Source: Candidatus Bathyarchaeota archaeon (GTDB lineage: Archaea > Thermoproteota > CALKCG01 > B24 > DRYS01). From it: a stretch of DNA of 64,000 nucleotides. Positions 41,272 through 62,503 of the stretch are shown here, in pieces. A program made the position numbers and the translations under genes. Under the pieces are notes generated by a model that made no database searches, was not told the origin of the DNA, and was given only the letters and a program-made list of their open reading frames with translations. The stretch spans positions 1 through 64,000 of the forward strand of contig JAGTQC010000006.1 of the NCBI GenBank assembly GCA_018396535.1, in the 5' to 3' direction. Every line of letters begins with the position of its first letter. The stretch's first letter is position 1.

Positions 41272-42336
41272 ATGACTCTGCTAGAGCTACCGGTTGTTAG
41301 GAAAGCTAAGCTTCAAGAAGCGTTAGGCGATGGTAGAGTTAAATGTATGCTTTGCGAGAGAAAATGCATAATCCATGACGGTGGTAGAGGCTTCTGTAAA
41401 ACCAGGATTAACATAGCTGGTGAACTCTATACGATAGTCTATGGGGATATAAACGCTATATCAGAGAATCCTATCGAGAAAGGGGGTTAACCCCCCTCGA
41501 TAAAACCCTTCTACCACTATTGGCCTGGTACTATAGCTTTAACATTCTCTACTTGGAGCTGTAACTTTCCATGTCCATGGTGCCAGAATTGGCATTTATC
41601 CAAACTAGAGCCTAACCCATATAGAGCGAACTATATATCGGTCGATAGGATGGTGGATCTAGCTGTTAAATCTAGATGTAGAGGTTTATCTGTATCGTTT
41701 ACAGAACCCACACTCCTCTTCGAATACTGTCTAGACCTATTCCCTCTAGCTAGATCTAGAGGATTATACTGCAATTTTGTTTCAAACGGTTATATGACTC
41801 TAGAAGCTTTACGTATGCTGGTAGAAGCTGGTATGGATGGGCTTAAGATAGATGTGAAGGGGTGTAGCAACTCTGTTCGTAGATACTGTTTAGCTGATAT
41901 CGATGTATGTTGGAGGAATGCCTCTAAAGCTTTAGAGATGGGTGTACATGTAGAGATAGTGAATCTAGTAATACCTGGCGTAAACGATTCAGAAGAGTGT
42001 ATAGAGGAGGTTTGTAAAAAGCATATAGAGAGTGTAGGTGATGAAACACCCCTACACTTCACAGCCTACTATCCAGCTTATAGATTCACCAATCCTCCTA
42101 CACCAGTATCCAAGTTGGAGGAGGCTTATAGGATAGCTAAAGGTTATGGGTTGAAATACGTGTATATAGGTAACGTACCTGGGCATCCATACGAGAATAC
42201 ATACTGCCCTGAATGTGGTGAACTACTTATAAAACGCTACGGTTTAACATTGATATCTGTAAAACTTACGAAGGATAAGAAATGTCCTAGATGTGGTTGT
42301 AGCATACCTATAAGAGGAGATATACACACTATCTAG
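41272..42336 (+). CDS. amrS: AmmeMemoRadiSam-system radical SAM enzyme, interrupted by a 21-nt intron candidate (join 41272..41480,41502..42336; 347 aa)
   Basis: N-terminal C..C.R.C...G.C..R.N..G.L, PIEK|KPFYHYWPG, CNFPCPWCQNW, FTEP, VSNGY, IPGVND, PLHF.AYYP, YVYIGNVPG..ENTYCP.CG; the two listed ORFs share one frame and are separated only by TAA inside the insert. Confidence 0.92.
41481..41501 (+). other. Putative archaeal (BHB/HBh'-type) mRNA intron, 21 nt
   Basis: CGAG-AA^A-GGGGG-TTAA-CCCCC-CTCG-AT^A: a 4-bp helix with two 3-nt bulges and a 5-bp GC hairpin; excision restores PIEKKP and the reading frame. Confidence 0.8.
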
Positions 42337-42345
42337 GAGTGGTAG

Positions 42346-43203
42346 ATGTCTAAGCGATTCAGGGATAAGCTTATAGATAGGTTAGGTTTATCGAAAGCTA
42401 ACGCTATATCATCTAGCTATGATGTTATAGGTGATATAGCTGTTATAAGGGTTCTTAAACCTGGGGTTCTAAGCGATGAAGATTATTATACCATAGCTAA
42501 TATAATATTCGATTCTAATCCTAGGGTTAAGACTATACTACGCCAGGATAGCCCTGTAGAGTCTCCTCTAAGGATTAGACGTCTAACATTCATAGCTGGT
42601 GAGAAGCGTACTCTAACTATACATAGGGAGTATAGATGTAGTTTTAAAGTAGATCTATCTAAAGTATTCTTCTCACCTAGGCTATCCTATGAAAGAGTTA
42701 GGCTAGCTAGCTTAGTGAGAGAGGGCGAGTATATAGTTAATATGTTCTCAGGGGTAGGCTGCTTCTCCATATCGATAGCTAGATTAGCGAAGCCTAGAGC
42801 GGTATATTCGATAGATATCAGTAAGGATGCGTATGTACTAATGAAGGAGAATGTATATATAAATAATGTAGAGTATACGGTTATACCTATCCTAGGTGAT
42901 GCTCGTCAAACGATCGAATCGAGGTTGAGATACATAGCTGATCGTGTAATAGAACCTCTACCAGATTTAGCGTATGCATACCTAGATGTAGCTTTAAAAG
43001 CTTTAAAACCTGAAGGCGGATGGATACACTACTACAGTTTTATACATGTGAAGAGTATGAGCCTAGACTACGAGGTTTGTAGAATTAAAAAGAGGATAGG
43101 AAGGTATGGGTGGATTGCTAAGTATGCTAAAGCTAGGATTGTTAGAAGCGTCGGTCCTAACTGGGTTCAATCAGTCGTAGATCTATACGTATCTAAGATC
43201 TAA
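42346..43203 (+). CDS. Trm5/Taw2-family tRNA methyltransferase (Met-10+ class I SAM MTase)
   Basis: YDVIGDIAV, GEKRTLTIHREY.CSFKVDLSKVFFSPRLSYER, NMFSGVG, GWIHYY. Confidence 0.9.
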   Translation: MSKRFRDKLIDRLGLSKANAISSSYDVIGDIAVIRVLKPGVLSDEDYYTIANIIFDSNPRVKTILRQDSPVESPLRIRRLTFIAGEKRTLTIHREYRCSFKVDLSKVFFSPRLSYERVRLASLVREGEYIVNMFSGVGCFSISIARLAKPRAVYSIDISKDAYVLMKENVYINNVEYTVIPILGDARQTIESRLRYIADRVIEPLPDLAYAYLDVALKALKPEGGWIHYYSFIHVKSMSLDYEVCRIKKRIGRYGWIAKYAKARIVRSVGPNWVQSVVDLYVSKI

Positions 43204-60166: not shown

Positions 60167-62503
60167 TCACCTCTTCCTGACAAGCCTAGGTAGAAGTGTT
60201 GGATCTGGTATAGGCTTCTCACTCCACCCCTTACTCTTGAGAAACTCTAAAACCTCGGATTTCAGGGTTAAGGGTATATCAGCCTCCTTCCTCACATATA
60301 GGTGTAGATCATCTGGTAGACAGCCGAGATACTTCTTACTCAGATCTATATAGTGTGAAAGCTTTATAGCTCTCCCTTTACTCGTATCATTAGGTCTCAT
60401 ACATAGCTTAGCTATCATAACTATAGCCTCTTCCTTACTCTCAGCAGCTACGAATAAATGCTCCGGAGCTGGACCAGAATAGACTCTATCACCAGTCCTC
60501 GCATCGTATACATACCATGAATTCTCATCATCCCTACGACCTAGTAGGAGTCTCCTATACTTAGCCCCATGAGGGCCTACGATAACTGGTACACCTAGAC
60601 GCCAGAATCCTGCAGCTATAGCTGCAGCCTTCTGACTCATAGCGCCCCAGGCTATACCTACAGCTCCAACCCTATTCAATATATAGTCGGCTATTTCCTC
60701 ATAGTTAGCTCTAAGATTCCTCTTAGCGAATATAGCTGCAATCTTTATAGCTGCACCAGCTATATGGCTATTCGATATGCATGAACCTACATTCACTAAT
60801 CCACCTGCATCGAATGTTCCAGTATACTTCTCATATAGAGATCTACCCTCATCATCCTTAGCCATAGCTAACGTCATAGCAGCGCATCCAGAAGCGACCA
60901 CTATATAGTTTCTCTTCAAGAATTCCTCAGCTATCTCCACTATCTCTCGCCCACCATTATAGTAGTTAGAGCATCCTACAAAGGCTATAACACCAGGTAT
61001 TTCACCGAAAACTATAGGTCTACCGACATTCCTTATCTCTACATCCTGTATAGGACCTCTACCAACCCTAATTTTAAACCTCTCATTTCTCCATATCTTT
61101 CTAGCACCTTGAATTATAACGCTATGTACAGGTATTCTCTGAGGGCAAGTCTCCTCGCATTTACCACACCCTATACAAATTTCGTATAGATATGCGAGGG
61201 CATTGAAATCTCCTTTAGAAGCTGCATTAATAGCTTCAGCGATGGGTAGATTATTAGGGCATGCTCTCTCACAGAATCTGCAACCTCTACACTTAGAAGC
61301 TAGAGTTTTCAAATCCTCATCTGATGGCAGGGATCTAATCTTCTGTCTATACGGGAATATCTTCAAAGCAGTCTTAACAGCTAGCTCACCCACTCTATCA
61401 GGATCTAGGAATAGTATACCCGGCATAGACCCGCTTACAAGCTTCTCTACTATAGAATCTATAGGTTCACTAGTAGCATCTGGTAGACCCATACACTTCT
61501 CTATAGAAGTAGCGATAACAGGAGCCTTTACTCTAGCAGCTTCTAGTAGTATATCTGCTCTTATACACTGCTCATCGACTACTACTACATCTGGTAGACC
61601 ACTTCTAACGAATCTAAGCTGCCACGATAAGGGTCCTACTATCTTAGCCATAGGATTATATCTGGATACATCATGTGCTGTACAACATATACCCGCAACC
61701 TCTACGGCTCCATACATCCTATTCCTAACTAGATAGTCTACTATAGATGCAGCCGATGGAACGTTATGACCTACGACGAGTATAACAGGTTTACTCTGAT
61801 CTATAGCAGCTAGACCTATCTCTACAAGAGGGGCTTCAGGATCACCCTTCGGGTATCCTAAAGCTACTATCTGAGCTAGATCTGCTATCTCTAAAGCTAC
61901 ATGATCCAGCATACCAGCATGGAATACTTTAGATTCAAAATCGATCCAGCTATCTTCTTGACCAGTATGCGTAGCAGCTAGTAGAGAGATTATCTGTTCC
62001 TCTACATAGCTTAAAGCATCCTCAAGATCACCTAAGATCCTAGGTTTTATACCGCATACAAGCCTGATTATAGGCGCCTCCACATATATGTTACCGCCTA
62101 GATCTATAGGATGATCCCTACCATACTTTGATACAAGGTATTCGAGTAGGTGTCTAGCGTGAGCTGCATGAGTCGCTGCGCCTATACAAGCTGCTAGTAG
62201 GACTATACGGGATTGCTGTGCAGGCATATCTATACCGCATGCTCCCCTCTTACCTGATGTTAGATCACATTTACCCATCGTGCATAGGCAGCATAGATCG
62301 CAGAATGGCATATAGAATGGCTTATACCTCTCTAATAGTATATGATCCCACCGTCTTAGATCGGTTATCGATGGGAAGGGTGTAGGTCCAAGAGGCTCCT
62401 CCCACTCCTCTAGTATCCTTCCGAAAGATATTTCAAGCCCTTCAGCTTGAAATATATCTGATACCAGCTTCTTAATTCTAAGATTAAAATCCCTTCTAGA
62501 CAT
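60167..62503 (-). CDS. cdhA: ACDS complex alpha subunit (CO dehydrogenase)
   Basis: CDLCCLCTMGKCDL..KRGACG, H..H.RH, GHN, GICCTAHD, DEQC, two 4Fe-4S motifs, GSC.SN.H, SQKA. Confidence 0.98.
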   Translation of the reverse strand: MSRRDFNLRIKKLVSDIFQAEGLEISFGRILEEWEEPLGPTPFPSITDLRRWDHILLERYKPFYMPFCDLCCLCTMGKCDLTSGKRGACGIDMPAQQSRIVLLAACIGAATHAAHARHLLEYLVSKYGRDHPIDLGGNIYVEAPIIRLVCGIKPRILGDLEDALSYVEEQIISLLAATHTGQEDSWIDFESKVFHAGMLDHVALEIADLAQIVALGYPKGDPEAPLVEIGLAAIDQSKPVILVVGHNVPSAASIVDYLVRNRMYGAVEVAGICCTAHDVSRYNPMAKIVGPLSWQLRFVRSGLPDVVVVDEQCIRADILLEAARVKAPVIATSIEKCMGLPDATSEPIDSIVEKLVSGSMPGILFLDPDRVGELAVKTALKIFPYRQKIRSLPSDEDLKTLASKCRGCRFCERACPNNLPIAEAINAASKGDFNALAYLYEICIGCGKCEETCPQRIPVHSVIIQGARKIWRNERFKIRVGRGPIQDVEIRNVGRPIVFGEIPGVIAFVGCSNYYNGGREIVEIAEEFLKRNYIVVASGCAAMTLAMAKDDEGRSLYEKYTGTFDAGGLVNVGSCISNSHIAGAAIKIAAIFAKRNLRANYEEIADYILNRVGAVGIAWGAMSQKAAAIAAGFWRLGVPVIVGPHGAKYRRLLLGRRDDENSWYVYDARTGDRVYSGPAPEHLFVAAESKEEAIVMIAKLCMRPNDTSKGRAIKLSHYIDLSKKYLGCLPDDLHLYVRKEADIPLTLKSEVLEFLKSKGWSEKPIPDPTLLPRLVRKR

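Follow-up and report, generated by a model that had tools for sequence, protein, structure and literature searches.

In a 64,000-nucleotide (nt) stretch of DNA from a Candidatus Bathyarchaeota archaeon (positions 1 to 64,000 of contig JAGTQC010000006.1, assembly GCA_018396535.1; here called the window), the coding region of amrS, a gene for an AmmeMemoRadiSam-type radical SAM enzyme, is interrupted by a 21-nt insert. It is highly likely that this insert, at positions 41481 to 41501, is an EndA-type intron with a relaxed bulge-helix-bulge (BHB) motif of the HBh′ form, and that amrS is a new host gene for such elements. Very probably, the enzymes of tRNA splicing cut the amrS mRNA and rejoin it; we infer cleavage and ligation from sequence features that were observed directly, namely, the structure of the insert, its conservation and covariation, the restoration of the open reading frame (ORF), selection acting on each of the two exons, and the enzyme genes in the genome. 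The initial annotation of this DNA had suggested a tRNA-type mRNA intron in a new host gene, and every comparative test that we ran fits that suggestion.

An interrupted reading frame in amrS

The amrS gene occupies positions 41272 to 42336 of the forward strand and can be read in one frame from an ATG at 41272 to a TAG at 42334 to 42336, with a TAA at 41488 to 41490 as the sole interruption. When the TAA is read through, the frame yields a single 354-position protein that matches TIGR04337 with 238.2 bits (curated cutoff, 220 bits) despite an insert of 7 positions, and residues 97 to 241 match the Pfam Radical_SAM domain. Rereading of the sequence agreed with the initial annotation that the ORFs at 41272 to 41490 and 41650 to 42336 share one frame, that the radical SAM CxxxCxxC motif lies in neither, and that the 21-nt insert in a PIEKKP motif is the only break. 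The codons for CNFPCPWC, which holds the CxxxCxxC motif, are at 41560 to 41583, past the TAA and upstream of the first downstream ATG (41650). The insert sits inside PIE-K/K-P (here and below, a slash within a motif, outside square brackets, marks the insertion point), and in uninterrupted orthologues the motif reads PIE[K/I]KP in nearly all cases.

Removal of positions 41481 to 41501 in silico produces EKKPF and a 347-amino-acid (aa) product. Exon 1 (41272 to 41480) would encode an N-terminal Cys-rich region and ends at base 2 of a Lys codon; exon 2 (41502 to 42336) would encode CxxxCxxC, the radical SAM core, and a C-terminal Cys4 group. The predicted spliced junction is GAGAA/AAAACC, in context CCTATCGAGAA/AAAACCCTTC without 41481 to 41501, and the peptide spanning it in the predicted product is NPIEKKPFYHYW. 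All gene callers annotated amrS as two pieces, of 72 aa and 228 to 291 aa, which is the misannotation that had been foreseen.

Four independent assemblies have the same insert, letter for letter (the NCBI metagenome-assembled genome [MAG], a JGI metagenome, and two Logan run assemblies; the contig occurs in samples JGI 3300025090, SRR5468567, and SRR10491509), so that the check for an assembly artifact came out in its favor. In a fifth assembly (L138; GCA_038888975.1), the 1,065-nt gene is otherwise 100% identical and has five C residues instead of the six at 41491 to 41496. The intron there would be 20 nt long, and the frame is shifted unless it is removed; the missing C is either tolerated variation or a homopolymer error.

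Folding of the insert RNA gave a minimum free energy of −20.2 kcal/mol (z = −2.7) and agreed with the core fold that had been claimed for it. The central helix has 4 bp, formed by CGAG on the exon side (41475 to 41478) and CUCG on the intron side (41496 to 41499). Between the two strands lie the 5′ three-base bulge AAA (41479 to 41481) and the intron-side helix h′ (41482 to 41495), a GGGGG/CCCCC stem with a UUAA loop that contains the in-frame TAA. The central helix is followed by a 3′ splice segment, A-U-A (41500 to 41502). With predicted cuts at 41480/41481 and 41501/41502, the intron would run from the third bulge base through the hairpin and the 3′ helix strand to a terminal AU.

We propose the following mechanism. 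In the pre-mRNA, exon CGAG would pair with intron CUCG, so that the 5′ strand of this central helix is followed by the AAA bulge and then by the intron hairpin. A two-subunit EndA would cut past the second bulge base, at 41480/41481, and again on the opposite strand two bases beyond the helix, at 41501/41502. Ligation of the exons by RtcB would follow, producing ...GAG AAA AAA CCC...; the resulting enzyme of 347 aa would have both PIEKKP and CxxxCxxC on a single chain. From RNA left unspliced, only the 72-aa N-terminal peptide would be made.

Inserts at the same codon in related species

The GTDB order of this genome makes up its whole class and comprises 16 species, 14 of which could be read across the amrS site; the orthologues of family f4 (G005 and G008) are present only as contig-end fragments and stand outside this count. 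Thirteen of the 14 species (genera g1, g3, g5, and g6, from three families) carry an insert at the identical codon. The inserts are unrelated in sequence and differ in length (20, 21, 23, 29, 30, or 33 nt). Nine of the 13 have lengths that are not divisible by 3, and the 4 in-frame inserts each hold a stop codon; without splicing, a stop or a frameshift disrupts all 13 genes. A fixed cut rule (after GAGAA, and two bases past CUC[G/U]) gave a full-length ORF with PIEKKP in 13/13 species and also restored the ORF in 3 further metagenome contigs. The earlier claim that cutting after base 2 of each segment leaves an intact 347-aa ORF therefore extends from this gene to every insert-bearing species. 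Orthologues from other classes of the phylum were uninterrupted at the site (24/24), as were those from other lineages (~70 readable of 80 loci). A metagenome scan found 4 more contigs with the PIEK/KP intron, 2 with an intron at a second site (CP/WC), and 1 with an intein, both described below; the other 68 readable orthologues were uninterrupted. More than 170 orthologues from outside the order have no interruption at the site.

Pairing was examined in an alignment of the 13 sites (A1; 63 columns). In the model helices, 92.2% of cells are paired, versus 75.6% in shuffles and 43 to 55% with slid partners; 9 of 14 pairs are altered on both sides, and the covariation score is 0.408 versus 0.138. 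The central helix is 100% paired in all 13 species and contains one covarying pair, which joins the Ile codon, at its third base, to the intron; this pair is C-G in 5 species and A-U in the other 8. Pairing in the inner helix is 88.6%, with 8 of its 10 pairs altered on both sides. The AAA bulge is invariant, and the 3′ segment reads A-N-A in the relatives (A48 and A50 invariant, the middle base variable). The orthologue alignment thus has the pattern expected by the initial annotation, inserts at the same codon with variable sequence and conserved H-B-h′ pairing.

One part of the earlier description did not hold. A relaxed outer helix, AGAA/UUCU (41465 to 41468 and 41509 to 41512), had been included in the motif, but the only species in which it forms are the 3 of this genus among the 13; it is 48% paired across the 13 species and shows no covariation. 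We rejected it as a conserved feature (A1 pairs 1 to 4/57 to 60). The amrS insert has the 4-bp helix, the 5′ 3-nt bulge, and the intron-side helix of an H-B-h′ motif, and it lacks the second bulge closed by an exon-side helix h that a strict hBHBh′ motif has. Without a conserved outer helix, the motif counts as a relaxed HBh′ rather than a weak hBHBh′.

Both amrS exons are under strong purifying selection. Among eight pairs of intron-bearing species from three families, dN/dS was 0.05 to 0.10 for exon 2 and 0.05 to 0.26 for exon 1, and exon 2 accordingly gave no sign of the relaxed selection expected of a dead gene. In 10 of the 13 species, this genome included, no in-frame ATG, GTG, or TTG was found between the 3′ splice site and CxxxCxxC; the cluster loop can therefore be translated only as a continuation of exon 1. 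These results bear on the idea that the gene is broken or split, in which case a fixed lesion would have inactivated it, or its parts would be made as two polypeptides, while a paralogue does the work. The in-frame stop does leave ORFs of 72 and 228 aa that are annotated separately, and every genome of the order has an intact paralogue from this radical SAM family that lacks an intron (in the present genome at C12:36217-37218 on the forward strand, with 41% identity). We nevertheless regard this explanation as very unlikely. Constraint acts on both exons in all three families, and the stretch from the insert to the first ATG, with CxxxCxxC, is fully conserved although it has no start codon in 10 of the 13 species. 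Pairing also constrains the evolution of the insert itself, and a dead copy would not retain one exact restorable junction in 13 species.

Still less probable is translational recoding, in which the ribosome would bypass or read through the hairpin and no splicing would occur. Ribosomal bypass is exemplified by gene 60 of phage T4, and amrS has a stable hairpin with a stop in its loop directly past a Lys AAA codon, as well as another AAA downstream. However, takeoff from AAA at 41479 to 41481 and landing on AAA at 41503 to 41505 would give PIEK-P, one residue short of the PIExKP that nearly all uninterrupted orthologues have, and in a 20-nt version from the same genus the first AAA past the insert is, by inspection, out of frame. 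Recoding also fits poorly with insert lengths that vary from 20 to 33 nt, and the conserved feature is the geometry of a 4-bp helix and a 3-nt bulge, which recurs in an insert in the cbf5 gene of this genome (see below). Least probable of all is that a short mobile element or palindrome (a repeat, or the footprint of an element like a miniature inverted-repeat transposable element) was inserted into the DNA, or that the insert is an assembly artifact. The core of the insert, GGGGGTTAACCCCC, is a perfect 14-nt palindrome, but no other exact match to it turned up in the window or elsewhere in the genome, and the one sequence that differs by a single mismatch falls within an uninterrupted frame, read here as a UPP-synthase-like gene. 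Relatives have unrelated sequences at the identical codon, and the insert is seen in independent assemblies and read sets.

A 1.3-kb metagenome contig from another lineage (L185; Ga0164310_10173033) has a frameshift in its orthologue at GT/WSCNF. No BHB was seen there, and the shift is probably a sequencing error or the mark of a dead copy.

Splicing enzymes and further inserts

The genome encodes two EndA paralogues (C2:6210-6773, 187 aa, and C1:182214-182783, 189 aa), each with both Pfam endonuclease domains. When they are aligned, a His of one paralogue falls opposite an Ala of the other at the catalytic-motif position (DHAPYLV versus EAAKYLV). Judged by sequence, this is the pattern of a catalytic and a structural subunit, and the EndA of this organism looks like the (alpha-beta)2 type. 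An RtcB gene lies within C7:165752-167059 (596 bits).

Three other genes carry inserts of similar design. In cbf5, a BHB-shaped insert of 34 nt (C1:62867-62900, forward strand) interrupts HGGTL-D/P; it has a central helix CCCU/GGGG, bulges AGA and AUA, and a 10-bp inner stem. The gene for aIF5A has a 35-nt insert (C7:48986-49020, forward strand) at the hypusine site, KPGK/HG, with helix CGGA/UCCG, bulges AAA and AAA, and, by eye, no convincing exon-side helix. The EF-2 gene has a 32-nt insert (C9:125139-125170, reverse strand) upstream of RNIGIIAHVDHGKT, with helix UCCG/CGGA and bulges AAA and AGA. Like the amrS insert, those of aIF5A and EF-2 combine a 4-bp helix with AAA as the 5′ bulge and A-N-A as the 3′ segment. 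EF-2 and aIF5A are essential translation factors, and one copy of each was found in the genome. Because both are single copy and essential, mRNA splicing of this type of motif must work in the organism.

We also screened the 1.41-Mb genome for a 4-bp helix with a 3-nt bulge and an inner stem of at least 4 bp, combined with restoration of an ORF. The shape by itself matched at 61,210 places. The ORF filter passed 565 of these matches, versus 496 to 597 when the cut sites were shifted by 1 to 3 nt, so the 565 matches are not usable as an intron count; this loose filter does not discriminate, mostly because it fuses neighboring genes. The screen recovered the cbf5 and amrS inserts; it missed those of aIF5A and EF-2, whose first exons, with fewer than 40 codons, were too short for it. 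As the shape alone does not go beyond chance, the case for an intron in amrS rests on the comparative data; what does exceed chance is conservation at the same codon together with covariation.

The commonness of the shape is one of several points that weigh against an EndA-type intron in amrS. The species compared are kin and do not count as independent samples. The 3′ splice site does not lie in a closed 3-nt bulge, and the exon-side helix is unconserved. In this genus, the central helix can be extended to 6 to 7 bp by taking in A-U-A, which could hinder cleavage; elsewhere it gains one extra U-A pair at most. In addition, since an intact paralogue exists, the interrupted copy need not be essential. 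The extended helix was rejected as a conserved feature because A1 pair 9/49 forms only in this genus.

Other interruptions of amrS lie close by. In G003, of genus g2, the PIEK/KP site is intact, and a 30-nt insert (L007:1769-1798) is found instead in the Trp codon of CP/WC. It forms a near-canonical BHB, with a central helix GCCC/GGGU, bulges AUA and AAG, and an exon-side helix of 3 to 4 bp around ACAU/GUGU, and its removal gives CPWCQNW. Metagenome contigs L154 and L158 carry an identical insert. By its sequence, the CP/WC insert is a second, independent intron site, 29 codons downstream of PIEK/KP. A third kind of element is an in-frame insert of ~1 kb that begins at the third Cys of CxxxCxxC (L021:2182-3261, reverse strand, and L022, both from genus g3; L026, from G021; and L173). 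It matches LAGLIDADG and intein-splicing domains, and in L173 it ends in ...HN/C. The amrS genes of genus g3 thus hold both a BHB intron and a LAGLIDADG intein, the latter at CPW/C.

A broader reading of these data is tentative, and we hold it to be possible rather than probable: EndA-type introns would be widespread and still mobile in this MAG-only class, favoring codons of the most conserved catalytic motifs, and splicing by the tRNA machinery would be a routine and possibly regulated part of gene expression. In such a scenario, amrS would have been invaded, across sister genera, three separate times within 30 codons (PIEK/KP, CP/WC, and CPW/C), the preference for conserved codons would resemble that of inteins and homing introns, and EF-2, aIF5A, and cbf5 would all depend on mRNA splicing.

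Relation to known archaeal introns

A cbf5 pre-mRNA intron in Crenarchaeota was reportedly described by Watanabe in 2002. According to Schwarz et al. 2020 (PMC7714728), the cbf5 intron had been the only mRNA intron reported in archaea, apart from the case in a 5′ untranslated region (UTR) that they describe; according to Yokobori et al. 2009 (PMC2738675), introns in other archaeal protein genes had been predicted and not confirmed. In the literature that we searched, cbf5 has the sole archaeal coding-region intron with confirmed splicing by the tRNA machinery. Our literature search found no paper on amrS introns or on this lineage.

The closest parallel is the cbf5 intron of the Desulfurococcales and Sulfolobales (PMC2738675), which is likewise short and placed in a conserved motif codon of a coding region. 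The cbf5 introns often have relaxed motifs and are cleaved by hetero-oligomeric EndA (PMC2738675), and the relaxed HBh′ motif of amrS agrees with this. The two introns are also alike in having a 4-bp central helix and 3-nt bulges (in amrS, the 5′ one), in their often relaxed form, and in hosts with hetero-oligomeric EndA (for amrS, as predicted from the paralogue pair); the cbf5 insert of the present genome shares the A-U-A 3′ segment with the amrS insert. They differ in that the amrS host gene encodes a radical SAM enzyme and not a pseudouridine synthase, in that the lineage is an uncultured, MAG-only class of 16 species, and in that the amrS intron has no conserved exon-side helix and its splicing is a prediction.

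Noncanonical archaeal pre-tRNA introns with relaxed HBh′ or bulge-helix-loop (BHL) motifs, which are cleaved by (alpha-beta)2 or epsilon2 EndA (PMC5829648; PMC12397907), resemble the amrS intron in having one well-formed bulge, a 4-bp helix, and an intron-side helix. In both, the second cut (in amrS, the predicted one) is set a constant distance away, where there is less structure, and the genome studied here encodes an EndA that looks to be of the same class; noncanonical introns are cut only by (alpha-beta)2 and epsilon2 EndA (PMC5829648). Unlike a pre-tRNA, the amrS substrate would be an mRNA without a tRNA body, and its exon side is constrained by codons (Ile-Glu-Lys). The BHB intron in the 5′ UTR of HVO_1309 in Haloferax volcanii (PMC7714728) is an EndA substrate within an mRNA, as that of amrS would be; it lies in the untranslated leader of a euryarchaeal gene, whereas the amrS intron breaks a reading frame, so that the protein would need splicing. 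Inteins share with the amrS intron their position as intervening elements in a catalytic motif, here even of the same gene; an intein is ~1 kb long, translated, and removed from the protein, whereas the amrS element measures 21 nt and would be lost from the RNA.

With its 13 species, covariation, and selection on both exons, amrS would add a metabolic enzyme gene to the hosts of archaeal mRNA introns, and confirmation by spliced reads would make archaeal mRNA splicing much less of an exception than it is currently taken to be. Such genes are split or discarded by annotation pipelines, so that metabolic reconstructions of these lineages, and estimates of their completeness, are distorted. The substrate is short (~70 nt) and well defined, and the specificity of a two-subunit EndA on non-tRNA RNAs is thus directly testable.

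With respect to genomic context, amrS was not found in association with AMMECR1 and Memo partners. The AMMECR1 gene is unlinked, on another contig (C2:8825-9358), and no Memo gene was found in the assembly, which is 93% complete; because of this, the name amrS serves as a family label only. Downstream of amrS, 9 nt past its stop codon, begins a gene of the TRM5/TYW2 methyltransferase family (42346 to 43203, forward strand; PF25133 and PF02475), which probably shares a transcript with amrS.
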